Source: Candidatus Heimdallarchaeota archaeon (GTDB lineage Archaea > Asgardarchaeota > Wukongarchaeia > Wukongarchaeales > JBHIFL01). From it: a DNA stretch of 41,353 nucleotides. This document shows positions 10,119-40,614 of the stretch, in pieces. The notes under the pieces are model-generated. The model had not been told where the DNA came from. It saw nothing but the letters and a program-made list of their open reading frames with translations, and did no database searches. The stretch lies in contig JBHIFL010000038.1 of NCBI GenBank assembly GCA_046761065.1, forward strand, positions 1 to 41,353, written 5' to 3'. The position numbers were made by a program, and so were the translations under genes. Within the stretch, counting starts at the first letter, position 1. Each line of letters starts with the position of its first letter.

Positions 10119-10476
10119 AACAGATCCTTATTGCATGGAAACGGCTTTGGGAGGCGTTTGCGCCCATAACGTCTAATACGTGTCCATTCGTGTGTGACTC
10201 TGTACAAAACAGATGACGAAGTTTTTACTTCAGGATTCTTCTATCTCGATAGGACTGGAAGTTATAATTAGACATTTTTGAAAAAAATCTACGTGAGCAA
10301 AGTTACGCCTCATCAATTAGCTCTAAAGGAAACTTACCTCTGTATTAAGCCTGTATGAAGTTTAATTGAATTAAAATTAGGGTTATTTTGACCTAGTGAT
10401 CAACCAAACCTTGTCATGGATTTTTAGTTCTTTTTTGAATCATCACTAGTTCTAACACTTAAAAGCGAGCAAAAAA

Positions 10477-10486
10477 TATATATAAA
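10477..10486 (+). promoter_or_regulatory. TATA box with purine-rich BRE for the ABC binding-protein gene
   Basis: gagcaaaaaa-TATATATAAA about 110 nt upstream of ATG 10593. Confidence 0.55.
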
Positions 10487-10592
10487 CAACTTATATACAT
10501 TCAATATTATGACTTAAGAAAAAAGCAAGTTGATGGATTTTTCGAAAAACAGCTGCGCTTAAGTCAAGAGTAAAAAAATAGGTGAGTAGAAA

Positions 10593-12053
10593 ATGAATAA
10601 ACAAAGTAAACCTGCAGTATTACTAGTTGGGCTAATGCTAATATCTATTGTTGCAGCAACAAGTGCCAACCTTGGGCCAGTGAAAGCAACGGCCGAGCTT
10701 CCCACAGAGATCAAAATCGGCGGGGTGTTCCCCATAGTAAAGCGACCTGACGCAGGACGTGATCGACGAGATGCGTTTCTGATGGCCGTTGAAGAGATTA
10801 ACGCTCAAACAGGAACGGATCGAATCCTCCCTGAAGGGGTCAAACTCGTCTCAAATGTACAAGATGATGATAATACAGCCGCCGGAGGCGCCGCGGCCGC
10901 CCAAGCCTTAATTGCTTGGGGAGCTCACATAATATGCGGCTCTTCGGGAAGTAGTGTCAGTGCGGCAATGGCTACGGAATTAACACCCCACAAAATTGTA
11001 CAAATCTCCTACGCGTCATCTTCCCCCGCCTTAAGTGATCGGGAGCTGTATCCGTACTTCATGCGCGTCGTTGCGTCGGATGCTGATCAGGGAAGGGCTA
11101 TCGCAGATCTTGTTCAGGCCTTCGGCTGGGCACGTGGAGCAACGGTTCACACCAGCGACTCGTATGGAACGGGCTTGATTGAAGTCTTTACAGAAATCTA
11201 TGAGGAAAGAGGTGGGACAGTGATTACCGATCAAATATTTGACCCAGGTGCCACGGAAGTGTCTGCTCAAGTCCAGGCACTAAAAGATGCAAACCCGCAA
11301 TTTATATTGGGAAACTTTATTGACGTAGATGCCGCCACTTGCATGAAGAAGGCTCGTGATCTAGGGCTTACTGATGTCCCATGGATCACTACGGACGGGT
11401 GGTCGACCACCGCCACCTTCATGGGAGATCCAAGCGTTAAAGAAGCGATGCAACTCTCGATTGGTACCACGCCAGCTCCAGTTACTGCCCCTGGCTATGC
11501 CAAGTTTAATGAAAGCTGGTTTGATCCAGCGTGGGCCCACCTCGAGGGTCCGAAACTAAGTCAGGATACAGGAATTATGTTCAACGCATACGCACCAATG
11601 TCATACGATGCGGTTTATGTTGCTGCGAAAGGTTTAGCCGCAGCAAACAGCGTTGATGGCGATGCATTGTTAGCAGCCCTCTATGATATTGAGCATGATG
11701 GGGCATCGGGATACATTCGATTCAACGAGCTCGGTGAAGTTGTTGGTCGCTATGACTTTGTACAACTTGTTGGAGGAACCTATACTTCTTTTGGTGAATG
11801 GGGCTTACCTCCTGGAGCCACAATGGGTGCATCAATGTTCACTGATACATCTCTTCTTTTAGCAGACGGAACAGGATGGACTATTGCTGACAACAAGGTC
11901 ACTCAAGTTGAAGGACCACCAATAACAACGTTAACCACACAAATCGTAACAACAGTCGTTCCTGAGTTCGGGAATGAAATCCTAGGAGTGATATTTTCAC
12001 TGGGGCTTGCGGGTTTAACACCAATGGTATTTAGACGAAAACGAAGAAAATAA
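10593..12053 (+). CDS. ABC substrate-binding protein, type 1 PBP (LivK/ANF-receptor, class C GPCR VFT-like), with signal peptide and PEF-CTERM anchor
   Basis: N-terminal signal, IKIGGVFP, QISYASSSPALSDRELYPYFMRVVASD, YDAVY, GASGYIRFN..G, Thr-rich linker, then VPEFG-TM-RRKRRK. Confidence 0.9.
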   Translation: MNKQSKPAVLLVGLMLISIVAATSANLGPVKATAELPTEIKIGGVFPIVKRPDAGRDRRDAFLMAVEEINAQTGTDRILPEGVKLVSNVQDDDNTAAGGAAAAQALIAWGAHIICGSSGSSVSAAMATELTPHKIVQISYASSSPALSDRELYPYFMRVVASDADQGRAIADLVQAFGWARGATVHTSDSYGTGLIEVFTEIYEERGGTVITDQIFDPGATEVSAQVQALKDANPQFILGNFIDVDAATCMKKARDLGLTDVPWITTDGWSTTATFMGDPSVKEAMQLSIGTTPAPVTAPGYAKFNESWFDPAWAHLEGPKLSQDTGIMFNAYAPMSYDAVYVAAKGLAAANSVDGDALLAALYDIEHDGASGYIRFNELGEVVGRYDFVQLVGGTYTSFGEWGLPPGATMGASMFTDTSLLLADGTGWTIADNKVTQVEGPPITTLTTQIVTTVVPEFGNEILGVIFSLGLAGLTPMVFRRKRRK

Positions 12054-12080
12054 CCCTCCTCTCCGGTGGAAAAAGTAAAT

Positions 12081-12103
12081 ATCCCCTCTCCCCTTATTTT
12101 TTT
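12081..12103 (+). terminator. Pyrimidine/T-tract terminator after the binding-protein gene
   Basis: atcccctctccccttattttttt. Confidence 0.5.
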
Positions 12104-12221
12104 AAGGACCTTTGATTAAGTAAGTAGTGAGAAAACCAGTTTCCCCGATACAACCTATAGGGATGCAAATATTGAACCAAGACCGTCCTCCGGGCTCATA
12201 ACATTTTTTAAGAAAAGCGGC

Positions 12222-12229
12222 TTTATATA
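12222..12229 (+). promoter_or_regulatory. Internal TATA box for livF-livH-livM-livG
   Basis: gaaaagcggc-TTTATATA lies 46 nt upstream of ATG 12275. Confidence 0.6.
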
Positions 12230-12274
12230 TTGTTAAACCCAAGGTGTTCTTAAAACCTTCTGGGATGCGTTAAT

Positions 12275-13042
12275 ATGACCCACCCAGTCCTTCAGGCTTA
12301 TAACTTATATTCTGGTTATGGTAAACTTCAAGTGATCAATGGAGTAGATATCCACGTTGATGAAGGTGAGCTGGTAACGATTATAGGCCCAAATGGTTCT
12401 GGAAAATCGACCCTAATCAAGACTTGTATTGGTCTGGTAGACTTATTTTCTGGTCAAGTGTTTATCCGTGATATGGAGGTAAGTCATATGAGGCCTCACG
12501 AGATTATTGCGGCGGGAATTCCGCTTGGTTATGTTCCCCAGCTCGTTAATGTATTCCCTAGTTTGACCATTGAAGAAAACCTTAAAATGGGGTTATTCGT
12601 AAAAAAATGGGACGCGTATTACCAAGAAAGAGTACAAAAGATGTTTGATTTATTCCCAATTCTTGAAGAGCGGTTTAAACAAAAAGCCAGTCTTTTAAGC
12701 GGAGGAGAGCGACAGATGCTTGCCTTAGCTCGGGCTTTAATGCCGGATCCTGAAATTTTGATCCTTGATGAACCAACAGCAGCATTAGCTCCGAATTTAG
12801 CCGAAGAAATGCTGCAATTGATTTTATCCTTGAAGGAAAACATTGGAATCTCTATATTACTTGTAGAACAAAGAGCTAGGAGATCAATGGAACTTTCTGA
12901 TCGAGGATACGTACTCGTGACCGGGGAAATCGCAGCAGAAGGGCCTGCAAAGGAGCTGTTAGCAGAAGACCGAATCCGAAAACTCTACCTCGGAGCTCGA
13001 GATAGAGGACGAAGAAGTAAGCAATCCCAACAAGGGAAGTGA
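12275..13042 (+). CDS. livF: Branched-chain amino acid-type ABC ATPase
   Basis: GPNGSGKST, LSGGERQMLALARAL, LILDEPT and LLVEQ. Confidence 0.9.
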   Translation: MTHPVLQAYNLYSGYGKLQVINGVDIHVDEGELVTIIGPNGSGKSTLIKTCIGLVDLFSGQVFIRDMEVSHMRPHEIIAAGIPLGYVPQLVNVFPSLTIEENLKMGLFVKKWDAYYQERVQKMFDLFPILEERFKQKASLLSGGERQMLALARALMPDPEILILDEPTAALAPNLAEEMLQLILSLKENIGISILLVEQRARRSMELSDRGYVLVTGEIAAEGPAKELLAEDRIRKLYLGARDRGRRSKQSQQGK

Positions 13043-13049
13043 ATTACTT

Positions 13050-14111
13050 ATGCAAGTCAATATAGTTGGGCACGCCATTCTTGCGCTAGTATATGCAGGA
13101 ATATTGATTATGTTAACTATTGGTCTGAATATGGTCTATTCTGTGTTAAAATTTTCTAATTTTGCTCAAGCAGAGTACGTGACTTCAGGCATGTTTGCTT
13201 CTTGGTGGTTCCTGCAAATTCTTAGCAATCTTCTCCCATCGGATACTAGGCATTTTATTAATAATCTGTTTATCCAAGCGATGTTTGCGTTTGTAATCGT
13301 AGGAATACTCGGAATTCTTGGGGAAATCCTTGTTTACGATCGTTTGCGAATGCTGCGCGCCAGCCCAAGTTCTTGGACCGTAGCGTCGATAGGCATTGGA
13401 TTAATCATTAGAAACACACTATCGATGGTTTTCGGCGATTTTCCACGGCCCAATACAGTAAATTGTCCAACTTGTACCTCAACTGCTTCATTACCAGGTT
13501 GGTTGCCGAAATTTCTTCGAAAAGAGTACTATACCTTCGAATTAACAGAAACTCAAATGATAAGAATCACTGTGTTTGAGCTCTACATTATTTTAATGAG
13601 TTTTCTACTTGTTATTATTATTGATTATATATTTACGCATACAAAATTTGGGATCGCCATGAGAGCTACCTCGGATTCGATGGAATTGGCCCAAGTATCC
13701 GGAATCGATACGAAGCGGATTGTTTATTATACTTGGTTTCTTGCGGCGGGCATAACTGGGTTTGGTGCGGCCTTCGTTCGAGCGAATCAACCTCGATTTA
13801 GTACCTATGATGGCTTTTATTTGCTGCTTCCAATCTTTGCTGTTGTCATCCTCGGAGGCGTAGGATCCTTCCGGGGGGGAATTATTGCCGCTTTTCTGCT
13901 TGCTTATGCCCGGCAATTAACAGTTATTGTATTTACAGAATTTCAGAAACCGGGGGGACTTGAATCTATACTTGAGAAAACAATAGGATTTACAATCACA
14001 TTTACTCCAGCTTATGCAGAAGGGATTGGATTCATCGTTTTGATAATCGTCCTGCTTTTACGACCCCAAGGGATTCTTGGAACCGTTGAGGCCACAAGAG
14101 CGAGGGTTTAG
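13050..14111 (+). CDS. livH: Branched-chain amino acid-type ABC permease
   Basis: IGLNMVYSVLKFSNFAQ, TKFGIAMRATSD..LA..SGID, VILGGVGS and LLRPQG. Confidence 0.9.
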   Translation: MQVNIVGHAILALVYAGILIMLTIGLNMVYSVLKFSNFAQAEYVTSGMFASWWFLQILSNLLPSDTRHFINNLFIQAMFAFVIVGILGILGEILVYDRLRMLRASPSSWTVASIGIGLIIRNTLSMVFGDFPRPNTVNCPTCTSTASLPGWLPKFLRKEYYTFELTETQMIRITVFELYIILMSFLLVIIIDYIFTHTKFGIAMRATSDSMELAQVSGIDTKRIVYYTWFLAAGITGFGAAFVRANQPRFSTYDGFYLLLPIFAVVILGGVGSFRGGIIAAFLLAYARQLTVIVFTEFQKPGGLESILEKTIGFTITFTPAYAEGIGFIVLIIVLLLRPQGILGTVEATRARV

Positions 14112-14136
14112 CCATAAATGGGTAGAGTTGAAGCAA

Positions 14137-15447
14137 ATGGATAATCATAAAACTTCCTTGAAATCCTTTGGCGAAGGATTATGGAGGACCGTCCGTTCCC
14201 AAATACGAGAAAAACCAGAAGTATTCATTGGAGCGGCACTCGCTATTCCAATCTTACTGCTCTTTATTTACGGGCTATCCACATTATCAGCCAAAGCCAC
14301 TTGGGTAATTGGAACCGCAGCAACTATTTTAGTTTTCTTCGTTGGAGCAATAAGTTTAGATCTGGAAGTGGGATCGATGGGGCTCCCCAATTTTGGTAAA
14401 GTCGGTTTCTTTGCCCTCGGAGCCTATACATCAACATTACTCTACAGTGTGTACAACGTTCCTTTTTTCATGTCTGTGATTGCTGCTTTGGCCATTTCTA
14501 GTGCCTTTGGGTATTTAATCTCTATCCCGACGGTTAAGTTAAGAGCGGATTATTTTGCAATCATGACGATCGCTGGAGGGGAACTTATTCGAATGATTCT
14601 TCAGAACGAGAAACGATGGCTTTGGGCTCCTGCACCGATTGGTCCCCCCACGCAAGTCATCTCGAATCTATTAAAAATAAGATTTACCCGTGCATCTCCA
14701 TTTAATAAGAAATTATCTGAATTTGGAATAACGTTCTTTGAGGATATTGGCTGGGGTTCTGTATTTTTATGGGAGCTAATGTTATTAATATTCTTCCTGA
14801 TCATTTCAGTGTGCGTCTACTGGTTTGTCCAGCAAATTCGAAAATCACCTTACGGACGAGCTTTACGCGCCATTCGGGAAGATGATATCACTGTCACTTC
14901 AGTTGGGAAAGATGTTGCCCGGTTCCGGTGGCAAGTCACCACGATTGCTGCCTTCATCGCAGGGATCGCGGGTATCATGTATGCCACAACATTTAGTGCC
15001 TTTGAAGCCTCTGATTTTCGGCCATTTTTAACGTTTGACCTTTATATTTTCATAATTATTGGGGGTTTAGGAAACAGTCGAGGAGCATTCGCTGGAACAG
15101 CACTCGTTACTCTGTTTTTACGTGGAGCGCAAATAGATGCGGTAAAGCATAATATTAACTTGCACTTGGGCCCAGAAACGGCATATATAGGGCGGTTATT
15201 CCATTCCCTGCAAATTGACGTCTTTATAAACCCTGATAACATGAGATTTGTGATTCTGGGGTCGATTCTTATTCTATTTCTCCTGTTTAAACCTGCCGGG
15301 TTAATTCCTGAACCAAGAACCAATAATGAAAAATATTTGTCTCTACTAACAACAGAGCAGCGCGCGAGCTCTGATCAAGCCATCCTGGCTAGGCAAAGTC
15401 TGAGTGAAAAAGAAAGAATTGAAGAAGAGAGAGATCGTACTCCTTAA
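14137..15447 (+). CDS. livM: Branched-chain amino acid-type ABC permease
   Basis: GLPNFG..GFFALGAY, LRADYFAIMT, SPYGRALRAIREDD, IIGGLGN and KPAGL; start taken at ATG 14137. Confidence 0.9.
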   Translation: MDNHKTSLKSFGEGLWRTVRSQIREKPEVFIGAALAIPILLLFIYGLSTLSAKATWVIGTAATILVFFVGAISLDLEVGSMGLPNFGKVGFFALGAYTSTLLYSVYNVPFFMSVIAALAISSAFGYLISIPTVKLRADYFAIMTIAGGELIRMILQNEKRWLWAPAPIGPPTQVISNLLKIRFTRASPFNKKLSEFGITFFEDIGWGSVFLWELMLLIFFLIISVCVYWFVQQIRKSPYGRALRAIREDDITVTSVGKDVARFRWQVTTIAAFIAGIAGIMYATTFSAFEASDFRPFLTFDLYIFIIIGGLGNSRGAFAGTALVTLFLRGAQIDAVKHNINLHLGPETAYIGRLFHSLQIDVFINPDNMRFVILGSILILFLLFKPAGLIPEPRTNNEKYLSLLTTEQRASSDQAILARQSLSEKERIEEERDRTP

Positions 15448-30584: not shown

Positions 30585-31385
30585 TTGGGAAGAACGTCTA
30601 CAGGTGCTCCTCTGTTTGTTTCACTGTTTGGCATACTAGCGATGCTTGCAGGAATTGCGGCCATAGGAATTGGTGGAGCCATCTTAGCAGAATATGACAT
30701 TAGTATAATTCCAACTCAGGATTTGCTTACTAGATTGGCTGTTAGTAAAACAATACTTAGTGCAATATTTATAGTGGCCGGGCTCCTCTTACTCATTTCA
30801 GGGTACGGATTACGTTCGCTCAAATTTTGGGCATGGCTATTGTTCGTCCTAGCGTTTATTGCTACTATTGCCGCTTTTCTTTACCTTGATGCCACATTGC
30901 TTGTTCCAGGTGGAATTCTTGTAGCAATGGCAGTCATTTTTGGTGATTTACTTGCCGAAAATGAATATTTCCTCAAGCCAGAAGAAGAATGGCCTGGAAC
31001 TCCAGATTTTGTAGAGTTACTAAGTTATATCGTCATCCTAATTGGGCTAGTCGCTATAGCTGGTGGTGCGGGAATCTACTTAAAAATCGGCGCATTAACA
31101 GACCGGATCAGTCCTGAAACCGTGGAACGGGCCTACTATGGTCCAATCCAGAGCGTCGAGGCTGTTGGGCTTGTCCTAGCAGTGATTGGTATTATAATTC
31201 TGATTTGTGGCTGGGGACTCAAAACTACTAAAACATGGGCTTGGATTCTATTCTTACTTGTAGGAATTGGAGTAATGGCCCTAGTTTTCATGACATTCCC
31301 AGATATTACCTTACCGGGTGCAGTCCTTGTTGTGGTTTCAGTGATTCTGGGCGATCTCATTGCTGAAAAGCAATATTTCGATTGA
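30585..31385 (+). CDS. Eight-TM membrane protein made of two homologous four-TM halves
   Basis: GYGLRSLKFWAWLLF...GDLLAENEYF matches GWGLKTTKTWAWILF...GDLIAEKQYF. Confidence 0.8.
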   Translation: MGRTSTGAPLFVSLFGILAMLAGIAAIGIGGAILAEYDISIIPTQDLLTRLAVSKTILSAIFIVAGLLLLISGYGLRSLKFWAWLLFVLAFIATIAAFLYLDATLLVPGGILVAMAVIFGDLLAENEYFLKPEEEWPGTPDFVELLSYIVILIGLVAIAGGAGIYLKIGALTDRISPETVERAYYGPIQSVEAVGLVLAVIGIIILICGWGLKTTKTWAWILFLLVGIGVMALVFMTFPDITLPGAVLVVVSVILGDLIAEKQYFD

Positions 31386-31674: not shown

Positions 31675-31761
31675 CGAATCTTTGAGAAAAAAAACTGATC
31701 AAATCGCATCAAACTTATGCTTGGACGAACTGGGTGTTTTAAAGCTGCTGTGGTGATCATA

Positions 31762-33195
31762 GTGCCCCACATTGTAATGATCACCGAGGGAACATATCCC
31801 TACTTTGGTGGTGGAGTCTCACGTTGGTGTCATGTACTTCTAACAAAACTCTCCCAATTTAAATTCACAATTGTTGCTATCGTCCCCCCCAAAAAAGTGA
31901 TTGAGAAGTTTGTGCTACCTCAAAACCTAGTTCAAGTAAAACAAGTTCGTATCGGAGACCTTTCCCAGTTCAAAGGGATAGATAAGGCAGTAGTGAATGG
32001 AAATCAAATCAATGAGTTTATTAAAGAAAACATAGAAATGCACAAGGCCTTTATAAGCTCTGATCTTGCTTCAGCCCTCAAAACGACTCAACAGCTCTTT
32101 CCAAAAATTCAAGATGATCCAGTGACTTTTTGGAGGCATAAAAGTGGCCTTAAATACCTCGAGGAGCGATACAAAGATATCAACCCGGAAATCCCGTTCT
32201 ATAAATGGTTAGTATATTGGAAAAATACCCATGCTATGCATCTAAGCCTTGTGGTTCAAAAAATGCCCAAAGGCGATCTGTATCATGCCACGAATTCGGG
32301 TTGGGCTGGAGTTTTAGGACTGTTGGGAGCACAACGCTACGGGAAACCACTGCTTCTCACTGAACATGGTTTAGCTCTTAGGGAACGAGGGATTGCCATT
32401 GAACGAGGGGAGGAAACACCGACTCATGAGCGACTCAGCCTTGCACGAATCAGCATGAGGCTTAATCAACTGGTATATGAAGCGGCTAATCTGATAACCG
32501 TGGTTTGTAAAGCCAATAAAGATTGGTTAGTGCAAAACATCGGAATTCCTGAACATAAGATCGTAGTAACCTATAATGGGGTAGATATTAAGACGTTTAA
32601 GCCAGTAGAGTTGCCAAAAATGCCTTCCAAGATCATAGCCACCATTGCCCGAATTTTTCCCCTCAAAGATATCAAAAATCTGATAAAAGCTGCAAGCATC
32701 GTTTCGCGAAAGAAGCCAGAACTCAAATTCGTAGTTGTCGGAGCTCCAGCAGATCGAGAATATTATAAGGAATGTCTGAATTTGGTAAACGACCTCAATC
32801 TTCAATCGGTTGAGTTTGTTGGAACATCATCGAATGTTATTGCGTGGTATAATCGAATGGGAATTTTTGTTCTCCCAAGCATCAGTGAGGGGTTTCCATT
32901 GACAACGATAGAAGCTATGTCTTGTGGTACTCCTGTCATAGTTACAGATGTTGGAGGAGCGGCCGAACCAGTTAAGGTGGGTCGGCGGAGTTGCGGTTTG
33001 GTGGTTCCTCCGAGCAATCCATCAAAACTAGCGGAAGCTATTTTATTTCTGTACGATAACCTACATTACTATAGAACCCTAAGCCTCAACGCACGGAAAC
33101 TTGTTGAAACGTATTTTTCTGAAACCAAGTTCGTCCAAGAGTATCAAAAAATATATGATGAACTTCTATCGAATATGACTGATAGAAATGAGTGA
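31762..33195 (+). CDS. pelF: GT4 glycosyltransferase, PelF type (DUF3492 + Glycos_transf_1)
   Basis: Diagnostic ITEGTYPY..GGVS.W, DLYHA...GWAG, LLTEHG...RER, YNGVD, ARI.PLKD and LPSISEGFP...IEAM..G.PV..TDVGG; GGTGA RBS before GTG 31762. Confidence 0.88.
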   Translation: MPHIVMITEGTYPYFGGGVSRWCHVLLTKLSQFKFTIVAIVPPKKVIEKFVLPQNLVQVKQVRIGDLSQFKGIDKAVVNGNQINEFIKENIEMHKAFISSDLASALKTTQQLFPKIQDDPVTFWRHKSGLKYLEERYKDINPEIPFYKWLVYWKNTHAMHLSLVVQKMPKGDLYHATNSGWAGVLGLLGAQRYGKPLLLTEHGLALRERGIAIERGEETPTHERLSLARISMRLNQLVYEAANLITVVCKANKDWLVQNIGIPEHKIVVTYNGVDIKTFKPVELPKMPSKIIATIARIFPLKDIKNLIKAASIVSRKKPELKFVVVGAPADREYYKECLNLVNDLNLQSVEFVGTSSNVIAWYNRMGIFVLPSISEGFPLTTIEAMSCGTPVIVTDVGGAAEPVKVGRRSCGLVVPPSNPSKLAEAILFLYDNLHYYRTLSLNARKLVETYFSETKFVQEYQKIYDELLSNMTDRNE

Positions 33196-33287: not shown

Positions 33288-35108
33288 ATGCACAATACGA
33301 ATGGTAGAGAGCCCGATCAAGACCTTGATCCACAAACAGAATTAAACGAAACCCCAGATCAACAAAGTGAACGGATGAAACGGCTCCAAACGCTTTTACG
33401 AGAGGCAAATGCGAAAAACAAGTCTTTAGAAGGGGAGCTATCCAAATCGAAATCGGTCTTAAATAAAGTGACTGATGAATTAACTAAAGTCCGTTCCGAA
33501 TTTAATGCCTATGTTGCCGCTTCGAAAGAAGGCATTATGAATCTTGGAAAAGAAAACGAAAAGCTCAAAAAAGAAATTCGAGAGAGGGCTGAAAAGATCG
33601 TTGAGCTCGAATCGAAAGTCATGATGCTCTCACAACTTGGTGTGATGGATTCTGAGGATTTTAGCACATTAAAAGATGATCTCATAGAGTCTAGTGCTAA
33701 ATTGCGGGGAGAGAATGAAGCCCTTCGGGAAGCCCTTAAGAAAGCTGAGGAGAAAACTCTTAGCGATGCCAGAAAACTTCATCAACTACAGGAACAACTC
33801 CAAGCCCACTTAGAAGAAAAACGAAAATATAGTGCAGACCAAAAGCGCCTTCATTTAGAACTAGAGGCACTTCAAAATGATTTTGCAGCTTTAGAACAAA
33901 AATATTTCGAAACACACGCGATCAAAACTCAATTGGAAAATCAGATGGCCGAAGAGGAAGTAATGCACGTTACACTTCAAAAAGCCCGAGAGAAAGTACG
34001 AGAACAAAAAGAGATTATCGAAGGTCTTAAGGCTCATATTTCTGACATTGAAGGGAAATATGGTGCAACATTACATCAAATTGAAATGTTGGACGAGAAA
34101 GAAGAAGAGATCAAGCAACTCTCAAACAAACTCGCTGAATATAGAACACGACTCGCTGAATTGAAATATCAACACCAAATAATGGACGAACAAAAGCAAC
34201 TACTCGTCAAAACCCAGGATGAATTGACCAAAACCCAAGAACAATACGATCAAGCAAGGTTGGAGCTTCAAAAGTTCGAAAACATAAGTTCAATGCTTCA
34301 AGAAAAAGAAAACCTCCTTAAAGAACTCCGTGAAGAACTAATCACTTACAAAGCTAAGGTTGCTGAATTAACTGCTGAAGTTGAAACAACTCATAAATAT
34401 CAGGAACAATTACATGAATCGCAAGATGCAGTCTCGGATCTTATGAGTCGTATCGCAGGTATGGCAACCAAAGTCACCAAATTAAAAGCAGAACTAAAGA
34501 AAACAATTGAGGAAAGAGATAGGAAGTTAAAAGAACAACAAAATGAGATTATCCGACTTAATGAAAAAGTCGGAGTGCTCCAAGCCGAAAACGACCTGAA
34601 ATCTGCAGAGATAGAAGCATTAGAAACACGAGCAAGTAGCGCCGAATCTCAGCTGAGTGCTGTGCAGGAGAGCCTTAGTCGTACTTTTGATCTTGGAGAA
34701 AAACTGGATGCATTTAGCGCCGAGAGCACACAACGGACACTTAGTCTAGAAAAGCGGTTAGAAGTATTTGAATTGACTGCAGATGGACTTGCCCAGATGA
34801 AAGAAGAACTTCTTCGAGAGAAAGAGCTTCTTAAGGAAAAAGTTCACTTATCTGATACTTATATAAAGGTTTTACAACAGACTGACCTAGGGAGGGTCTT
34901 CCTCCTTGTTAAAGCCTTAAGCAAAACCAATGTCGATCACTTGAGTCGCGCTTTAGGAATTCCAAAACTTAATCTGCTTCCTTCTGTAAGAGAACTGGCT
35001 CGGATGGGAGTAATTGACTTAAAAAGAAAAAGTATCACTTTTATTCCTCCGGTTGTGGAAGACGGTTCAGGAAAAGAAGATCTCGTAAAGCTTGCGAGTG
35101 ACTCATAA
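33288..35108 (+). CDS. Long coiled-coil protein (about 500 aa) with C-terminal winged helix; no ATPase motifs or TM
   Basis: Continuous E/K/L/Q heptads; C-terminal RVFLLVK...NVDHLSRALGIP...LLPSVRELARMGVIDL. Confidence 0.8.
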   Translation: MHNTNGREPDQDLDPQTELNETPDQQSERMKRLQTLLREANAKNKSLEGELSKSKSVLNKVTDELTKVRSEFNAYVAASKEGIMNLGKENEKLKKEIRERAEKIVELESKVMMLSQLGVMDSEDFSTLKDDLIESSAKLRGENEALREALKKAEEKTLSDARKLHQLQEQLQAHLEEKRKYSADQKRLHLELEALQNDFAALEQKYFETHAIKTQLENQMAEEEVMHVTLQKAREKVREQKEIIEGLKAHISDIEGKYGATLHQIEMLDEKEEEIKQLSNKLAEYRTRLAELKYQHQIMDEQKQLLVKTQDELTKTQEQYDQARLELQKFENISSMLQEKENLLKELREELITYKAKVAELTAEVETTHKYQEQLHESQDAVSDLMSRIAGMATKVTKLKAELKKTIEERDRKLKEQQNEIIRLNEKVGVLQAENDLKSAEIEALETRASSAESQLSAVQESLSRTFDLGEKLDAFSAESTQRTLSLEKRLEVFELTADGLAQMKEELLREKELLKEKVHLSDTYIKVLQQTDLGRVFLLVKALSKTNVDHLSRALGIPKLNLLPSVRELARMGVIDLKRKSITFIPPVVEDGSGKEDLVKLASDS

Positions 35109-35150: not shown

Positions 35151-36236
35151 ATGGAAGGATTAACATTTCTCAGAGATCCGAAAGTTCAAGAATTGATCAA
35201 AGCACTGCTTGATGGGACGATCGAGCGGCTCGAACCTGCATATTCTATCGAAAAAGGGCAGCATTACCCCCTTCTTGAAGAACATCTTGGATTATCCACA
35301 GAGGAAACCAATGATCTCTTGGAACGCCTTGTAATGACAGGTGTATTGACTGAAAAAGTAACTGGAACAATCCTGAAGTGCCCGACCTGCGAATCGACGG
35401 TTCTTCGGCCGATCAATACATGTCCTCGATGTGGATCAACTAATTATGAACGTGGGACCCTTGTAGAACACCACATCTGTGGGAATGTGGGTTTTGAACA
35501 ACACTTCAAGCAAGGTTCGGATTATATTTGTACTCGTTGCGGTGAGTTACTCACCTTAAAAGACTTAGGGCGCAATTGGATAGTTCCCGGGAAGTGGCAT
35601 CGTTGTCGAGATTGCCATTTGTATTTCGAAATTCAACGTACCCAACCTTTAGCCGTTTGTGTCCTTTGTGGGCACAAATTTGATATAAGGGAATCAGTAC
35701 TCGAAGAAGCGAAAACCTATCTTTTGGATCCTTTAGTTTTAGAAGATTTAATGAGTGCTACTGGCGTGACGGAGCCCCTTCTGAAAATGTTAGAAGCGGA
35801 AGGCGCTAAAACAGAAATGCCTGCCAGAATTATTGGTAAATCTGGAATGCTACACCATTTCAGTTTTGCTTTCACCCAAGAACGTGACCCGGAAGCCTTT
35901 GTGGGGGTGGGTGATATCATAATCCGTGCTGCTTCCGTTACAGGGAACGAGTTTTTCAATCATTTAAGCAAGTTCCTTGATATTGAGGCCACCCAGCGCT
36001 TCTTTGTCGTAGCAGGAGCGAGACTAGATGGCGATGCTCGAGGCCTCGCGGAGAGCTATGTCACATGGAGAGGGCCTATTGTCAAGGTTGTTGAAGCACA
36101 AAACCTATCAAACGCGATTCAGAAGTTGAATGAAGCCATCAAAAGCGCTATGAAGGAAGAACCGGAACGCAAAGAATCTGAACTGGAAGTCCTTGAATCC
36201 ATGCTGCAGAAAATGAAAGGCGACCGAATCAAATAG
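35151..36236 (+). CDS. TackOD1-type multi-Zn-ribbon protein with N-terminal wHTH-like segment and C-terminal restriction-endonuclease-like fold
   Basis: Six Zn-ligand pairs (CPTC, CPRC, EHHICG, CTRC, CRDC, CVLC), G..YP...LLERL...GVL and IIGKSG..HHFSF. Confidence 0.8.
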   Translation: MEGLTFLRDPKVQELIKALLDGTIERLEPAYSIEKGQHYPLLEEHLGLSTEETNDLLERLVMTGVLTEKVTGTILKCPTCESTVLRPINTCPRCGSTNYERGTLVEHHICGNVGFEQHFKQGSDYICTRCGELLTLKDLGRNWIVPGKWHRCRDCHLYFEIQRTQPLAVCVLCGHKFDIRESVLEEAKTYLLDPLVLEDLMSATGVTEPLLKMLEAEGAKTEMPARIIGKSGMLHHFSFAFTQERDPEAFVGVGDIIIRAASVTGNEFFNHLSKFLDIEATQRFFVVAGARLDGDARGLAESYVTWRGPIVKVVEAQNLSNAIQKLNEAIKSAMKEEPERKESELEVLESMLQKMKGDRIK

Positions 36237-36462: not shown

Positions 36463-39400
36463 GTGAAGAGGTTAATCAAGATTTCTATCATATTTTCCTT
36501 AATATTTTTAGCTTCCTTTCTTTCATACGAACCTGTACATGCTCAGAAATGCATGGAATCGCTTAACACCGCCTTATCAGATAACCAAAGTAAGCCAATC
36601 CGAGTTGCTCTGATGTGGAACTCGGAATTACCTCCAGACGATTATATGTACAGAGATCTCGAGATTGTAAAAGATATCTTTCACCACTGGAAAATAGCCC
36701 CCCTCGATCTTGTGGATCTATCATCGGGATTGAATATACAAACTCTGGCTGAAACATATTCTACGATTATTCTTCCCTCTGTGGAACTACTCAGTCCTTT
36801 TCTTCCATTCCCCCTTGCAAATGGGACTATAGACGTAATCACAAGCGCCATCGTGAACTATTCCATAAATATAATCTTGGCAAATGTCCAACCAGTTTTC
36901 GATTTTGCCAACCCCATTTATGAAGCCGCATTCGATATGAAAACGGATGGTTCCACTTTTGTTATAGGAGAGAGGTATGAACAGTTGTTTAAATTTCATG
37001 AGGAACCTAATGATTGGATTATAGCTCGTTCAGGGCACAATGTTGTGCTACATGAAAGCCTGTTGTCTTATTGGTGGGGTTTATGCGGATACGACGAGAG
37101 AATAGAATTAGGCATGAACGAAGATTTCACCGCCACAGACTTCTTTAATGTTTTGGGAATCGCCTTACCTGAAGCAATTGCTTGGATCCTCGGGGTTCCG
37201 GCATTTACACTCAGAAACGATGATATATACATAGAATCGTGGAACTTCGACTCCGGTTTTGAAGGCTTAAAAAACTACGTAGAGTTCATGGGGCGAGAAG
37301 CAGGTTGGGTTGAAGCGTCAAATGGCATTGTGGGGTTATATGACCAAGAAACTAACTATGCCTCTGCTCCGTATCAAAGAAAATTAGGGGATTATGGAAT
37401 GCTTGTGTCCCATTCTTGGACTCACCCCTTTTTGTCAACACTGTCTCTCGAAGAACAGATCGAGGAATTAGCAAACACTAAAGATTATCTAGCTAAAATG
37501 TATCCCGATGAATTTGATCCCAGTTTATTCATTGTCCCAAACAATGACTGGAACCAGCTCACATTAGTTGCCCTTAATATGACGGGTCATTCAATGTTTA
37601 CTGCTGCTCGTTTTCGAGATGTCTTGGAGTACATATCAAGTCCAGCTAAAAAGGAAGTATTTCTACAATATGGTTGGTATACTACTGAATATGAAGGTAA
37701 AGAATATTCTGTGTATGGATTTCCTTGGATGTATGCTTATGACGCGAATAGCTCTACTCCTCAAGGTGTGGAGGATCTGAGTCGAACCCCAGAAGGATGG
37801 GTGACCGAAGATTATGCGCGTGGGGGATTCGCTGAAACTCGGAGGACCTTATTTGAATTCTATTACCCATTAATGATCGGAACTCATGGGGTCTATCAAG
37901 CTTGGGAACACTGGGAAAACTGGGAAATAATTACGAGGAATATTATTCAAGGCCTACACGGTGGGGAGATCCCTTACTTGAGAGTAGCAGAGACCGCAGA
38001 ATCAATCCGTGATGTCAAAAATTTGGAGAAGGTGACAATGGAATCAGCGTTCTATGATGACTCTGGAATTACTTTGACACTCACCAATCCTGGACCCGAG
38101 CTTAGAAATATGGTACTCTTTGCAAACTCATTAGAACCCAATTATATTGCCCATGTTTTAGTAGATGATTCTTTACATATCGGATTTGGCGATAATTACG
38201 TTTTCATACCTTCTTTTAGTGGATCGTTGAAGGTCCGAATCCAACTAACCTCCTCAAGTAGTCCAATCCCGACAACGCCTATTCTGCGGGGGATAACCGT
38301 AGGCGGCTTAGAAAAAGCGAGTTTCACCAATTCCGAGGTAGAAATCGAGATCTCAGGGCGTGCAAACCCTGTCTATTTTGCTACAACCATTTTGTCCCTT
38401 GATCTTTCCGGCATCGATCAGGAGGAATCGGTGCAACGGATCTATGTACAAGGAGAGGAAGGCACACGGGGAATTTATCAAATCGCAGATTTAAGGCACG
38501 GTTGGGATGGTTGGAATTACAACGCCGATACTCGTATGCTAAGAATTAAAGCCCGAATATTTGGCAAGGAACAAGTTCGCATCCTTTTGTCAGGCCAACC
38601 ATCCCCCACAATCAATCATAGACCGACTGCTATGATTAATTCACCTTTGAATGGTTCGATTTTCACCGGAAATGCAGCTATCACTCTGCAAGGAGGCGGC
38701 GCGGATGTAGATGGAGATTCATTAATTTACTTTTGGTCTTCCTCTCTGGACGGGGATCTAGGGAATAGCCCCACACTACAGATAAATGGTGCCGATCTAT
38801 CTCCAGGAAATCATGCGATCATGCTTATCGTAGCTGAAAATGGACCCCACTATACTTTTGCTGATCGAACATCAATCAACATCTACATCAGCTCCCGAAC
38901 CATTATTAACCCCATAATACAGAATATCCTGCAAATTGTGGCGATAATTGGCTTAGTACTGGTTATACTTCCCTTAATCGTAAGAAGAAGAGCAAAGAGA
39001 CCGGAATCCAAAAGATCTCGGAAAGAAGAAATAATGTTAGAACCCCTCACATTGTGGAAGATCTTGTATCAGATTTTCCTGAGCAATGGACCTTGGCTCT
39101 TTGCGACAGCATTCTTTCTCATCCTTGGCATGGCATTCATGATGGTGCTTGATTTCCCCGAAAAAAAGATCATGTCCTTCTCACTGGGGATTGCCACTCC
39201 TATTTCATTGATTCTATCAGGATGGCTTGTCGGACTGAGTATTAGAACGGTTTCCGATTATTACATAGAGAATCAAATATTTAGTAGCCGTTACAGTATG
39301 AAACGATTCCTGATGATCGCTTTAACCGCTCTAATTTTGATTGGACTGGCCATGTTTGCGATTATGCAATATCTTGACTTTTCTTTAGAATTGACCTTGC

Positions 39401-40614
39401 TCACATTCAGTTTCTTTATTTCATTTGGCCCACTCTGGTACGCAGTTGGAATGCTTAATGCGTTCAAACGGTATGGTCGGATGACTATCATTTTTGCAGG
39501 GGGAGTGTGCTTTGGATATTCCCTCGCAATGCTGTTTGCAACGACAGGACAACCAACTCTCCTTGTAGGCCTTGCATATGGTGCTGGGTACCTCCTCGCT
39601 GCTATTGGAATCTTCATCTATCTTTTCACGTCCTTGCTCTCAACCCCATGGATTCAAAAGATGAGCGAAGAGGAAATTCGATATTTCTTAGCCCTTCTAA
39701 CAGAACCACGTAGATCCGATACTCTAAAGACCATCCAAGAGAAGACTAGCCTACAACCCCCTTTAACAGAAGATGCTGTTACCCTTCTCAAAGATGGATT
39801 AAAGCTTAGATTGAAGGAGGGGAAGAGTGAACTATCTTTGCGAAGAGTATATGCCAAGAATTCTTGGTTGATTATTGGAGCTATTTGCTACGCGACTTTT
39901 ATTTGGATCGATCGGATCTTCGTTTGGTTCGTGACAGGTCAACAAACAAGTGGTTACGTGCTGGCGATCAATTCAATCTATGAGATTGGTGTGAACATTG
40001 GATTCTGGGTACTCCTGTTTACCACGGGAATGATCGCATTCGCATTTCGAGACTTTTCAGATCGGTACATACAGGCGACGAACCGTCTCTACTCAGACAA
40101 ACTTGACACTATCGAGTCAGGATTGTCTGAACTTGCGGGAAATGTCTTTACCCAGCTACTGAAGATTATTCTGATGGCTGGCATCATAGCGGTTATATTA
40201 TTCGTCAATGCGTCCCAGATTCTCACAATATTCCGAGTTGGGAGTGTAGTAGGTGAAGCTGATGCGCCATATGCAGTTCCAGATATTACACACCCAAGTA
40301 TGGCCTTTACAAGTCCTTCAGTAGTTGTACTTCGCATAGCAGCTATTGATGCGGTGTTTATAGCCATCTTTCTTTACACGCACCTTGGCTTGTCATACTT
40401 GGCGATGTACAAAAAGGCCGCATTAGTTCTTATAATTGCACTTGGAGTGGCGACCCCTCTGGTATTAGTCATTATTACGAACTTTGCTATATATTATGCC
40501 GTCCTAGGTCATCTAGCAGGGTCAGTCGTGGCAGCTGGTGTGGGTATTGTGTTTTTGCGAAAAGAATTGAAACCTGAAACAATAATTCACCGGTATGTTG
40601 CTCCCCAACTTTGA
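36463..40614 (+). CDS. Fusion protein: signal peptide + CE4/NodB polysaccharide deacetylase + Ig/PKD-like domains + TM + PelG-like multi-TM polysaccharide exporter
   Basis: CE4 motifs LRNDD (about aa 252), SHSWTHP (about 317), FIVPNN and GTHG; NHRPTAMINSP..G.GADVDG..L.Y.WSS (about 718); PelG-like SNGPW (about 874), R.VSDYY, WIDRIFVW (about 1148) and YE.G; about 12-13 TM helices. Confidence 0.8.
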   Translation: MKRLIKISIIFSLIFLASFLSYEPVHAQKCMESLNTALSDNQSKPIRVALMWNSELPPDDYMYRDLEIVKDIFHHWKIAPLDLVDLSSGLNIQTLAETYSTIILPSVELLSPFLPFPLANGTIDVITSAIVNYSINIILANVQPVFDFANPIYEAAFDMKTDGSTFVIGERYEQLFKFHEEPNDWIIARSGHNVVLHESLLSYWWGLCGYDERIELGMNEDFTATDFFNVLGIALPEAIAWILGVPAFTLRNDDIYIESWNFDSGFEGLKNYVEFMGREAGWVEASNGIVGLYDQETNYASAPYQRKLGDYGMLVSHSWTHPFLSTLSLEEQIEELANTKDYLAKMYPDEFDPSLFIVPNNDWNQLTLVALNMTGHSMFTAARFRDVLEYISSPAKKEVFLQYGWYTTEYEGKEYSVYGFPWMYAYDANSSTPQGVEDLSRTPEGWVTEDYARGGFAETRRTLFEFYYPLMIGTHGVYQAWEHWENWEIITRNIIQGLHGGEIPYLRVAETAESIRDVKNLEKVTMESAFYDDSGITLTLTNPGPELRNMVLFANSLEPNYIAHVLVDDSLHIGFGDNYVFIPSFSGSLKVRIQLTSSSSPIPTTPILRGITVGGLEKASFTNSEVEIEISGRANPVYFATTILSLDLSGIDQEESVQRIYVQGEEGTRGIYQIADLRHGWDGWNYNADTRMLRIKARIFGKEQVRILLSGQPSPTINHRPTAMINSPLNGSIFTGNAAITLQGGGADVDGDSLIYFWSSSLDGDLGNSPTLQINGADLSPGNHAIMLIVAENGPHYTFADRTSINIYISSRTIINPIIQNILQIVAIIGLVLVILPLIVRRRAKRPESKRSRKEEIMLEPLTLWKILYQIFLSNGPWLFATAFFLILGMAFMMVLDFPEKKIMSFSLGIATPISLILSGWLVGLSIRTVSDYYIENQIFSSRYSMKRFLMIALTALILIGLAMFAIMQYLDFSLELTLLTFSFFISFGPLWYAVGMLNAFKRYGRMTIIFAGGVCFGYSLAMLFATTGQPTLLVGLAYGAGYLLAAIGIFIYLFTSLLSTPWIQKMSEEEIRYFLALLTEPRRSDTLKTIQEKTSLQPPLTEDAVTLLKDGLKLRLKEGKSELSLRRVYAKNSWLIIGAICYATFIWIDRIFVWFVTGQQTSGYVLAINSIYEIGVNIGFWVLLFTTGMIAFAFRDFSDRYIQATNRLYSDKLDTIESGLSELAGNVFTQLLKIILMAGIIAVILFVNASQILTIFRVGSVVGEADAPYAVPDITHPSMAFTSPSVVVLRIAAIDAVFIAIFLYTHLGLSYLAMYKKAALVLIIALGVATPLVLVIITNFAIYYAVLGHLAGSVVAAGVGIVFLRKELKPETIIHRYVAPQL

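Follow-up and report, generated by a model that had tools for sequence, protein, structure and literature searches.

A conserved single-chain fusion of a CE4-like deacetylase ectodomain with a PelG module in a Pel-like locus of an Asgard archaeon

To our knowledge, the deacetylase and PelG are separate proteins in all studied bacteria. Our comparison system is that of Bacillus cereus ATCC 10987, with the locus pelDEA_DAFG and a PelA_DA composed of CBM114, CE26 and a beta-rich domain (PDB 9ZAU) (PMC13254593; Whitfield et al. 2020, bioRxiv 10.1101/768473). De-N-acetylation of alpha-1,4-GalNAc is proven for this PelA_DA, and AF2 and AF3 predict that it binds PelG; the resulting complex was proposed in 2026 from AlphaFold models only, and the exporter role of PelG in bacteria is itself only predicted (PMC13254593). 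The PelA of Pseudomonas aeruginosa and P. thermotolerans joins a GH166 hydrolase, a reductase-like domain, a CE21 deacetylase and a beta-jelly roll (PDB 9cgy), with PelG, PelB and PelC as separate proteins, while Aspergillus fumigatus Agd3 (CBM87 + CE18; PDB 6nwz) is a galactosaminogalactan deacetylase. Other synthase-dependent exopolysaccharide systems possess fusions of their own, namely GT-PgaB deacetylase, BcsAB and BcsZC; the survey describing them reports no PelA-PelG fusion, archaea lying outside its sample (PMC7112194). Here, we describe a gene on a 41,353-nucleotide contig of a Candidatus Heimdallarchaeota archaeon (JBHIFL010000038.1, the window) that encodes a deacetylase-like part and PelG in one chain.

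Layout and topology of the fusion protein

As the sequence-only reading had claimed, positions 36463..40614 of the plus strand constitute one uninterrupted open reading frame of 1383 aa with no internal stops. It starts at GTG and is preceded, 6 nt 5' of the start, by the Shine-Dalgarno-like GAGGGG. The GTG is favoured over M31 because the orthologues support it. P0002, the existing gene call for the contig, has 1353 aa because it begins at M31, and is without the signal peptide. The order of parts is signal peptide, alpha/beta/alpha domain, CE4-like deacetylase, two beta-sandwich spacers, anchor helix, basic linker and 12-helix PelG (Table 1).

Table 1. Features of the fusion gene and of its neighbours in the window
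Feature	Position	Strand	Residues	Remarks
6-TM membrane protein, 266 aa	30585..31385	+		upstream of pelF; six hydrophobic segments; no Pfam or NCBIfam match; locus membership uncertain
PelF-type GT4 glycosyltransferase, 492 aa	31717..33195	+		NCBIfam NF038011; DUF3492 + Glycos_transf_1
Coiled-coil protein, 606 aa	33288..35108	+		C-terminal wHTH-like end; conserved locus member
Stand-alone TackOD1 zinc-ribbon protein, 361 aa	35151..36236	+		PF18551, 106.9 bits
Signal peptide	36463..36543	+	1-27	hydrophobic core 4-22; likely cut after VHA; from hydropathy
Alpha/beta/alpha domain	36544..37167	+		GATase1/GH42-trimerisation-like, CBM-like
CE4-like (NodB-homology) metal-dependent deacetylase domain	37168..38058	+	236-532	
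Beta-rich domain(s)	38059..38598	+	533-712	beta-sandwich like those at the C-terminal side of glycoside hydrolases and in PelA_DA
Ig/PKD-like beta-sandwich spacer	38599..38907	+	713-815	DxDGDSL.Y.W motif
Anchor TM helix and basic cytoplasmic linker	38908..39060	+	core 822-840; linker 843-866	linker RRRAKRPESKRSRK
PelG N-terminal six-helix bundle	39061..39627	+	867-1055	PF16933 profile positions 24-209; AF2 pLDDT 74-92
Cytoplasmic TM6/TM7 insert	39628..39861	+	1056-1133	~78 residues; small helical module
PelG C-terminal six-helix bundle	39862..40614	+	1134-1383 plus stop	conserved tail IIHRYVAPQL; PF16933 profile positions 230-445; AF2 pLDDT up to 94; 108/250 invariant
Coiled-coil protein, 125 aa	40822..41199	+		downstream of fusion; conserved neighbour; coiled-coil matches only (Pfam, NCBIfam)

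Hydropathy places the signal peptide first, followed by ~790 aa outside the cell, a single transmembrane helix, nine Lys/Arg residues inside and 12 further helices; the extra helix is required by the fusion topology because PelG begins in the cytoplasm. Three elements named in the sequence-only reading were recovered along this chain: i) the signal peptide, for which all orthologues share an N-terminal hydrophobic segment and a small-x-small site (here VHA before Q) even as the sequence drifts (1/27 invariant); ii) the beta-sandwich/PKD-like spacers, with a repeat at residues 716-810 that matches residues 329-435 of PDB 2yhg (E 0.017); and iii) the transmembrane helix followed by a basic stretch, in which a helix of hydropathy 3.11 precedes the nine Lys/Arg among the next 15 residues. 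The Ig/PKD-like spacer was given no Pfam family since Big_7 matched only at E 0.097. A phmmer search of 1.84 billion representatives returned 1382 matches at E<=0.001, and those listed, beyond the rows of the fusion family itself, cover residues ~700-850 and are mostly multi-repeat proteins.

AF2 modelled the anchor as a helix (model residues 6-32, pLDDT 67-80) and gave the linker a pLDDT of ~37. Both are poorly conserved, at 3/27 and 2/24 invariant positions, respectively, which is more in keeping with a tether than with a specific docking helix; a specific helix-PelG contact of the sort modelled for B. cereus is thus not supported here.

The extracellular CE4-like deacetylase domain

The alpha/beta/alpha domain has a fold like that of the CBM87 of Agd3 and the GH42-like domain described for PelA_DA (PMC7890745; PMC13254593). 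The domain that follows is identified as CE4-like from its sequence. PF01522 (Polysacc_deac_1) cleared its cut-off of 23.1 bits in 4/4 orthologues tested (28.7-33 bits), the match spanning only positions ~51-122 of 124, that is, half of the profile. An hhalign comparison with 37 Asgard CE4 ORFs (probability 91.9%, E 6.9e-7, 211 columns) brought MT2, the MT3 proline and the MT5 histidine into register, with the MT1 register uncertain. Language-model neighbours of the domain all belong to the deacetylase clan (PF01522, DUF2194/DUF2334 and Polysacc_deac_3); the Pfam DUF2194 profile did not match it. The NDD and HSWTH metal-triad motifs previously read from the sequence lie within RNDD (251-254) and SHSWTHPF (316-323), both invariant in seven orthologues, and the candidate catalytic or metal residues D253-D254, H317/H321, P359, R441 or R461, and H475 are all invariant in the alignment. 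The canonical MT3 arginine is absent (I357-V-P359), as in CE18 and CE26.

The earlier designation of this half as a PelA-like CE4 domain stands in part. A CE4-like deacetylase is borne out by PF01522 and hhalign. The single chain, the Pel-like locus and the lack of a GH114/GH166-type hydrolase also hold, with no hydrolase domain in the fusion and no GH114-type match in the genome (91% complete). The designation fails in its Pseudomonas sense, for the three-domain order matches the Gram-positive PelA_DA (CBM114 + CE26) and Agd3. Homologue searches found no stand-alone relative of the ectodomain; the kinship with PelA_DA therefore lies at the level of fold and layout only.

We considered whether the fusion is real and the ectodomain an inactive, degenerate CE-like carbohydrate-binding or cell-surface (S-layer-spanning) stalk whose role would be to guide or anchor the polymer or to hold on to partner cells. 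AF2, run on an alignment of seven sequences, did not fold the CE domain (residues ~200-520, pLDDT below 50), whose (beta/alpha)7 barrel is hence putative, the fold class of the N-domain is that of a binding or oligomerisation module, and the missing MT3 arginine and uncertain MT1 register point the same way. Furthermore, no ectodomain relative was found in the Odinarchaeota and Asgardarchaeum genomes with stand-alone PelG (PF01522 matches in 0/4 genomes searched), so that a Pel-like polymer is apparently possible at their PelF/PelG loci in the absence of a detectable deacetylase. Against this, the candidate residues do not vary among orthologues of 54-86% identity, no other extracellular part is as well conserved as the CE domain (124/297 invariant, 42%), and the active PelA_DA and Agd3 likewise lack the MT3 arginine and possess a downstream one (PMC13254593). 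We regard an inactive stalk as unlikely, and a metal-dependent deacetylase as the better reading.

The PelG module, its locus and its conservation

The identity of the PelG half is secure, in agreement with the initial assignment: PF16933 matched in two stretches with 56.1 bits (cut-off 29), the AF2 model of this half (pTM 0.73) adopts the MOP-transporter fold, and Foldseek placed the N-terminal bundle in the MOP superfamily (MATE, WzxE, MurJ) at probability 1.00. The TM6/TM7 insert falls outside the Pfam profile, which skips from 209 to 230. Ca. Asgardarchaeum abyssi and Odinarchaeota have the insert in their stand-alone PelG too; it contains an invariant R1084, and was modelled as 3-4 short helices (pLDDT 51-61).

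Family matches support a Pel-like locus. The PelF-type glycosyltransferase, likely the polymerase, scored 213.8 bits against the NF038011 PelF equivalog cut-off of 100. In a relative with a 60% identical fusion (L003), the same gene order is found: 6-TM protein (85% identical), PelF in the same position, coiled coil (621 aa), TackOD1, fusion and a 122-aa protein; in L003, L004 and L019 the fusion is followed by a counterpart (122-125 aa) of the downstream coiled-coil protein. The 606-aa protein has weak coiled-coil-type matches only in Pfam and NCBIfam, and aligns with a 425-aa coiled-coil protein beside the Odin PelG (BLASTP E 3e-7) through its C-terminal end. The TackOD1 protein, the sole copy in the genome, may stand in for PelD/PelE as a regulator or adaptor; TackOD1 also adjoins PelG in Ca. 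Asgardarchaeum abyssi, a co-occurrence that alone is not specific because TackOD1 is present in 54/151 Asgard genomes. No PelD or any GGDEF match was detected in the genome. Comparison of the locus proteins with Pfam and NCBIfam brought up no PelB or PelC family, which, with the archaeal host, agrees with the setting without periplasm or PelBC proposed earlier.

It is quite unlikely that the locus makes no exopolysaccharide and that its MOP-type module, in the manner of Wzx or MurJ, is a flippase for lipid-linked oligosaccharides used in S-layer or protein glycosylation, with the tethered esterase trimming the glycan outside. Its structural neighbours do handle small or lipid-linked substrates, PelG export is only a predicted role, and PelD, PelE, PelB and PelC did not appear among the family matches of the locus; however, the match is to the specific PelG family, far over its cut-off, the adjoining PelF equivalog (DUF3492 + GT4) completes the hallmark pair of Pel loci (PMC7112194), and no polyprenyl-phosphate glycosyltransferase or oligosaccharyltransferase family was seen among the locus genes scanned.

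The search for homologues with the same fusion, suggested by the sequence-only reading, yielded six clusters of near-full-length orthologues (1379-1388 aa, 54-86% identity, same Pfam pair) that share length, junction and neighbours with the fusion gene. They derive from NCBI, ENA, JGI and Logan assemblies, where the carriers are named Hodarchaeota or Heimdallarchaeota; NCBI labels halves at contig ends 'PelG' and 'polysaccharide deacetylase'. No conserved internal Met precedes the PelG module in the alignment. Judged by this conservation, the gene is not a chimera. That a chimeric contig or a stop-removing sequencing error joined a deacetylase gene to pelG is already effectively refuted: the contig belongs to a MAG whose contamination stands at 8.2%, and the metagenomic orthologue L019 has a frameshift, evidence that errors or decay do happen in this gene, but the frame recurs in six protein clusters from four sources that are independent down to the assembler (one Logan call of 1383 aa is identical), the junction of PKD-like domain, TM, basic linker and PelG TM1 aligns throughout, the extra helix is exactly what the topology demands, and the L019 frameshift, ~118 codons before the 3' end, is away from the junction.

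Proposed function and comparison with known systems

The evidence supports a real and conserved fusion in which a CE4-like, metal-dependent deacetylase ectodomain and PelG share a single chain. The gene product is probably a PelA_DA-type polysaccharide de-N-acetylase, extracellular and held by a type-I anchor, that runs on into the N-terminus of an archaeal PelG, an exporter of the MOP family with 12 TM helices. It would thus provide both modification and export for a Pel-like, synthase-dependent exopolysaccharide locus of this Asgard archaeon of the Hod/Heimdall group. In such a model, cytoplasmic PelF would polymerise UDP-HexNAc (UDP-GalNAc by analogy) and the PelG module would move the chain across the single membrane. 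The ectodomain, a putative CBM-like alpha/beta/alpha domain, CE4-like esterase and beta-sandwich followed by the Ig-like spacer, would be raised above the membrane by the length of some two to three beta-sandwich domains. Most likely, the polymer leaving PelG would be deacetylated by this tethered enzyme: bound in the CBM-CE groove, it may be partially deacetylated, possibly at alpha-1,4-GalNAc, and so become cationic and adhesive. With the bacterial c-di-GMP module (PelD/PelE) apparently missing, control or scaffolding might fall to the TackOD1 protein, the coiled-coil-wHTH proteins and the cytoplasmic PelG insert.

Relative to B. cereus PelA_DA, the Asgard fusion shares the monoderm-type setting, an extracellular membrane-anchored deacetylase devoid of a hydrolase domain, and the succession of alpha/beta/alpha, CE and beta-sandwich domains; in ectodomain layout it is closer to PelA_DA than to Pseudomonas PelA. 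Also shared are the DD, HxxxH and late His, a downstream position of the MT3 Arg, a locus that encodes both PelF and PelG, and the proposed placement of the enzyme on PelG to take the emerging polymer. The two differ in that the Asgard deacetylase and PelG form one chain, in an archaeal host where PelD/GGDEF was not found, with an extra Ig/PKD-like spacer and no sequence-level DUF2194 match. The anchor also differs: it follows the ectodomain, which enters by a signal peptide and is held in type-I fashion, whereas B. cereus has an N-terminal M1 helix; the Asgard CE domain is therefore membrane-distal and the beta-sandwich and Ig domains proximal. Pseudomonas PelA, in contrast, is soluble and periplasmic and works with PelB/PelC at the outer membrane; hydrolase, PelB and PelC were not seen in the Asgard fusion or locus. 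Agd3 also lacks the canonical MT3 Arg and MT4 Asp (PMC13254593), but is a secreted fungal enzyme with neither membrane anchor nor exporter. The stand-alone Asgard PelG proteins (509 aa in Ca. Asgardarchaeum abyssi, ~532 aa in Odinarchaeota) are 24-26% identical to the PelG half and have the cytoplasmic insert and PelF, TackOD1 or coiled-coil-wHTH neighbours, but neither ectodomain nor anchor helix. GT-PgaB and its like set a precedent for a modifying enzyme fused to inner-membrane synthesis machinery, with deacetylation at the membrane face; these fusions are bacterial, act on PNAG or cellulose, and have a GT, not a MOP exporter, as partner. The coupling of export and deacetylation is not new in principle, having been put forward in the 2026 PelA_DA paper (PMC13254593); the Asgard fusion offers independent, natural support for a deacetylase-PelG complex rather than a new concept.

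Architecture and integrity of the fusion protein

The fusion protein is encoded by a single open frame of 1383 codons that begins with GTG, with a Shine-Dalgarno-like GAGGGG located 6 nt 5′ of the start codon. The GTG start is backed by the orthologue alignment and by an identical 1383-aa call in Logan; some ENA calls (1392 aa) carry 13 extra residues upstream. The protein called on the contig, P0002 (1353 aa), starts at M31 of the full frame and hence lacks the signal peptide, which a hydropathy scan places at residues 4–22 as a hydrophobic stretch followed by VHA/Q. Approximately 790 mostly hydrophilic residues separate the signal peptide from a membrane anchor, a strongly hydrophobic helix (822–840) trailed by nine Lys/Arg within 15 residues. 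The C-terminal block comprises ~12 TM helices that extend to the C-terminus in two six-helix bundles, and hydropathy together with the positive-inside pattern places both termini of this PelG part in the cytoplasm.

The PelG model PF16933 matches the fusion at 56.1 bits (cut-off 29) over profile positions 24–209 and 230–445, and is found in all fusion orthologues. An AlphaFold2 (AF2) model of residues 812–1383, built from an alignment of 12 sequences of which five are stand-alone Asgard PelGs, reached a pLDDT of 73.5 and a pTM of 0.73, and Foldseek assigned it to the MOP superfamily (MATE, WzxE, MurJ) with a probability of 1.00 and TM-scores (by target) of 0.55–0.67. The profile score and the modelled fold uphold the PelG-like module of the sequence-only reading; the other elements that it listed, namely the signal peptide, CE4 motifs, spacers and TM helix with a basic stretch, are likewise all present in the uninterrupted frame. 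TM6 and TM7 are joined by a ~78-residue cytoplasmic insert that lies outside the Pfam PelG profile, occurs in the fused PelG as well as in the stand-alone proteins of Ca. Asgardarchaeum abyssi and Odinarchaeota, and bears an Arg (R1084) invariant across all of these; AF2 renders it as 3–4 short helices at low confidence (pLDDT 51–61).

Could the fusion be a chimera of two genes? Homologues with the same junction were recovered as six clusters among 5.8 billion protein clusters searched (1353–1388 aa, 54–100% identity, 98–100% query coverage), drawn from NCBI, ENA, JGI and Logan, with the PF01522 and PF16933 pair precomputed in all but one. Where an organism is named, it is 'Candidatus Hodarchaeota archaeon' or 'Candidatus Heimdallarchaeota archaeon', and two halves of the fusion at contig ends are named by NCBI 'PelG, partial' and 'polysaccharide deacetylase family protein, partial'. 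In a 7-sequence alignment, the junction runs unbroken from the Ig-like domain through the TM helix and the basic linker to the first PelG helix. Gene order is also kept: the locus of a relative (L003, fusion 60% identical) carries the 6-TM protein, PelF, the coiled-coil protein, the TackOD1 protein, the fusion and a 122-aa coiled coil. The breadth of the clusters, the continuous junction and the kept gene order effectively rule out a chimera. Separate translation of the PelG part is unlikely, since the Met that precedes it in the window's genome is not kept among orthologues in the same alignment.

In one metagenomic orthologue (L019), a frameshift divides the gene into frames of 1266 and 118 aa; the lesion lies ~118 codons from the 3′ end, away from the junction, and reflects a sequencing error or decay of this copy. 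Among the extracellular parts, invariance is highest in the CE domain (124 of 297 positions), level with the PelG bundles, while the anchor helix (3 of 27) and the linker (2 of 24) drift freely.

Coordinates of the fusion gene, its neighbours and related loci
Feature	Sequence	Coordinates	Strand	Remarks
6-TM protein	window	30585-31385		no family match
PelF equivalog	window	31717..33195		upstream of fusion
Coiled-coil protein	window	33288-35108		606 aa
TackOD1 zinc-ribbon protein	window	35151-36236		stand-alone; directly upstream of fusion
Fusion protein	window	36463..40614	+	1383 aa
Segment with differing start calls	window	36463-36555		
TM6/TM7 insert of fused PelG	window	39628-39861		residues 1056-1133
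TackOD1 gene	L017 (Ca. Asgardarchaeum abyssi)	9443-10543		directly upstream of PelG
Stand-alone PelG	L017	10555-12084		
Stand-alone PelG	L018 (Odinarchaeota)	10373-11971		
Coiled-coil protein	L018	12482-13759		425 aa
Frameshifted fusion orthologue	L019 (contig JABAOC010031910.1)	5881-10042		
Second PelF-like GT	L080 (contig C108, window's genome)	10331-11659	-	442 aa
Look-alike ORF	L081 (Odinarchaeota genome G304)	11170-15063	-	1297 aa

The extracellular region

Fold matches of the N- and C-terminal domains, with the CE domain placed by homology, give a three-domain order of an alpha/beta/alpha CBM-like domain, CE and beta-sandwich. The beta-sandwich (residues 533–712) is indicated by secondary structure and fold matches; it is followed by an Ig/PKD-like repeat of wide occurrence that carries a DxDGD motif (713–815). 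Modelled by AF2 with a 7-orthologue alignment, the N-terminal domain was folded (pLDDT 70–85) and the beta-rich part weakly so, while the CE region (model residues 173–495) remained below 50 pLDDT, too low to reveal the distorted (beta/alpha)7 barrel typical of CE4-like deacetylases. Foldseek matches of this ectodomain model had low TM-scores only and were set aside. The assignment of the CE domain as deacetylase-type thus relies on sequence evidence.

This evidence begins with PF01522 (Polysacc_deac_1), which matches residues 316–377 at 28.7 bits (cut-off 23.1); across the four orthologues P0001, P0004, P0006 and P0007, scores lie at 28.7–33 bits and the match covers only profile positions ~51–122 of 124. 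Aligned by hhalign to 37 CE4 ORFs from Asgard genomes, the CE domain scored a probability of 91.9% (E 6.9e-7) over 211 columns; the register matches HSWTH to MT2 and pairs P359 and H475 with the MT3 proline and the MT5 histidine, respectively. The HSWTH motif (H317, H321), which corresponds to the metal-binding H-x3-H of MT2, is invariant in 7 orthologues and in register in the Pfam, PDB (2c1g) and hhalign alignments. The FTLRNDD segment (D253, D254), invariant in the same 7, was assigned by motif to MT1, the Asp-Asp pair that provides catalytic base and metal ligand in CE4 enzymes, the hhalign register being of low confidence there; it reads like the (L)TFDD of MT1. An invariant GTHG motif centred on H475 aligns to the MT5 His, the catalytic-acid position, of the Asgard CE4 profile. 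The canonical MT3 Arg (R-P-x-Y/F), which coordinates the base, was not found in the hhalign alignment to that profile, where the aligned segment reads F-I-V-P359-N with I357 in the place of the Arg; downstream of this segment, R441 and R461 are invariant. An Arg downstream of MT3 is the arrangement described for CE18/CE26, with R458 in PelA_DA, the Pel deacetylase of Bacillus cereus (PMC13254593). In this respect, the CE domain departs from canonical CE4 and resembles CE18/CE26.

As a lead only, a language model placed the CE part near clusters of PF01522, DUF2194/DUF2334 (0.90) and Polysacc_deac_3; the DUF2194 profile itself returned no match to residues 28–250 or 236–532 at E<=10. No hydrolase-type domain was matched by Pfam anywhere in the fusion protein, and no Glyco_hydro_114 match was found in the 91%-complete genome, in agreement with the earlier reading that had recognised no GH114-type hydrolase. 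A weak DUF2194 match to a 1238-aa ORF (contig C45, same genome) raised the possibility of a paralogue, which was rejected, as the ORF encodes an unrelated subtilase with a GIFT-type alpha/beta/alpha domain.

Relatives of the ectodomain are few. Profile searches gave only 4 weak, partial matches among 400 Asgard genomes and no further orthologue among 376–1213-aa proteins; a genome scan likewise gave none, and a metagenome scan recovered 3 loci only. When residues 1–850 were compared with cluster representatives, the Ig/PKD-like repeat dominated, and only P0004 spanned the whole ectodomain among the 150 matches listed.

Locus context and PelG across Asgard genomes

Upstream of the fusion gene, a PelF equivalog (NF038011, 213.8 bits, cut-off 100) is kept in L003. 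No match to PelD_GGDEF or GGDEF was found in the 91%-complete genome; the PelD search is weak, since its model matched no control genome. The TackOD1 protein beside the fusion gene is the only TackOD1 copy in the genome and could stand in for the c-di-GMP receptor that the locus lacks. In Ca. Asgardarchaeum abyssi, a TackOD1 gene, with a Ras-like GTPase gene before it, also immediately precedes PelG. Co-occurrence of TackOD1 and PelG was rejected as a specific signal because 54/151 Asgard genomes carry TackOD1; what counts, as a lead, is the adjacency alone, in two distant lineages.

The 606-aa coiled-coil protein and a 425-aa Odinarchaeota protein matched by BLASTP (E 3e-7, possibly inflated by coiled-coil composition), and the C-terminal wHTH-like ends of these proteins, each accompanying PelF/PelG genes, are alike. 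The 6-TM protein shares 85% identity in a pair of genomes with fusions only 60% identical, an unusually strong conservation for a gene at the locus edge. On contig C108 of the same genome lies a second PelF-like GT, with DUF3492 matched in two pieces. The URO-D, MtrH, RACo and B12-binding genes of C108 match those that follow the fusion gene in L003, so that this second GT probably lies downstream of the fusion gene, at a distance of ~12 kb.

PelG scored above cut-off in 6/400 genomes of the phylum: the window's genome, Ca. Asgardarchaeum abyssi and four Odinarchaeota, and by the PF16933 model only the window's genome encodes a fusion. The PelG of Ca. Asgardarchaeum abyssi is flanked by the TackOD1 protein, the Ras-like GTPase and PelF-like GTs; in Odinarchaeota, the neighbours of PelG are PelF and a coiled-coil protein. 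The Asgardarchaeum and Odinarchaeota PelG genomes yielded no relative of the ectodomain, and PF01522 had no match in the four of them searched, which argues for addition of the deacetylase to an archaeal PelG within the Hod/Heimdall group.

The fusion is limited to a small Hod/Heimdall group, with a look-alike in Odinarchaeota. The look-alike, a 1297-aa ORF, has a signal peptide, a ~800-aa ectodomain that contains HSVTH (position 361), a TM helix (829–847) and ~12 more TM helices. A PelF-like GT is encoded two genes away, and the ORF between them encodes a phage-integrase/zinc-ribbon protein rather than an epimerase; a GT similar to the second PelF-like GT ('PelF2') adjoins the 1297-aa ORF. 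Pfam gave no match in this ORF, and its C-terminal part gave a weak hhalign match (63.5%, E 6.8e-5) to the PelG alignment. Its ectodomain has no detectable homology to that of the window's fusion and no DD pair. The fusion layout thus recurs in Odinarchaeota, homology being unproven, and its recurrence with ectodomains that lack detectable homology could reflect a very old common ancestor or selection that favoured fusion more than once.

Proposed mechanism and comparison with known Pel systems

Taken together, the topology of the fusion is self-consistent: as PelG starts in the cytoplasm, an extracellular domain can be fused to it only via one extra helix, and such a helix is observed. Outward from the membrane, the anchor is followed by the Ig-like domain, the beta-sandwich, the CE domain and the CBM-like domain. 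In the model that we propose, PelF would make the polymer, PelG would pass it through the membrane, and the tethered CBM-CE groove would catch the emerging polymer and deacetylate part of it. The weak conservation of the anchor favours a tether over a specific helix-helix contact, such as the packing on PelG helices 9, 10 and 12 modelled for B. cereus. We infer which sugar is used, that it is deacetylated, and what TackOD1, the coiled-coil proteins and the insert do; our functional statements on the locus are computational.

It is possible, though we would stop short of calling it probable, that the bacterial Pel machinery was remodelled by Asgard archaea into a c-di-GMP-independent, single-membrane form, in which fusion of the deacetylase to the exporter obligatorily couples export and modification, with control exerted via TackOD1, the coiled-coil-wHTH scaffolds and the PelG helical insert. 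If true, the fusion would be a 'Rosetta stone' indicating that PelA_DA and PelG act as one complex, and would suggest that cells of the lineage nearest to eukaryotes bear a cationic matrix polymer. A cationic, adhesive polymer on Hodarchaeales-type cells would bear on partner attachment of syntrophic archaea. In bacteria, a c-di-GMP receptor turns Pel on; the missing receptor at this locus raises the question of how archaea regulate a synthase-dependent polymer. As a natural, conserved fusion, the protein gives independent genomic support for a functional deacetylase-PelG link and offers a single-chain object for cryo-EM, of relevance to Pel and EPS specialists and to Asgard cell biology.

Within the paper library searched, literature on PelG and Asgard lineages, PelG and PelA/fusion/archaea, or PelF and PelG with 'archaeal' gave no description of an archaeal Pel locus. 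A 2020 survey of bacteria, with archaea outside its scope, lists the EPS fusions GT-PgaB, BcsAB and BcsZC, and none of PelA and PelG (PMC7112194). A 2026 structure paper on the B. cereus PelA_DA suggests, on the basis of AlphaFold models only, docking of the deacetylase onto PelG such that Pel is modified on leaving the membrane, and mentions neither 'fusion' nor 'archaea' (PMC13254593).

Canonical Pel systems (pelABCDEFG / pelDEA_DAFG) possess the c-di-GMP receptor PelD, along with PelE, whereas our weak search for PelD found none in the window's genome. The Pseudomonas-type PelA (GH166 + CE21) carries an N-terminal glycoside hydrolase, unlike the fusion, which has no hydrolase-type match. 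The B. cereus PelA_DA (CBM114, CE26 and beta-rich; PDB 9ZAU), which de-N-acetylates alpha-1,4-GalNAc oligomers, is alike in its three-domain order, compared from the published description rather than coordinates, but belongs by sequence to DUF2194, whose profile did not match the fusion ectodomain. The anchors also differ: PelA_DA is held by an N-terminal TM helix, M1, whereas the fusion has a cleavable-type signal peptide and the C-terminal helix leading into PelG. The N-terminal helix of PelA_DA sets its CE domain beside the membrane, an order that is reversed in the fusion (PMC13254593). Of the known systems, the Gram-positive pelDEA_DAFG, for which a PelA_DA-PelG complex has been proposed, comes closest (PMC13254593).
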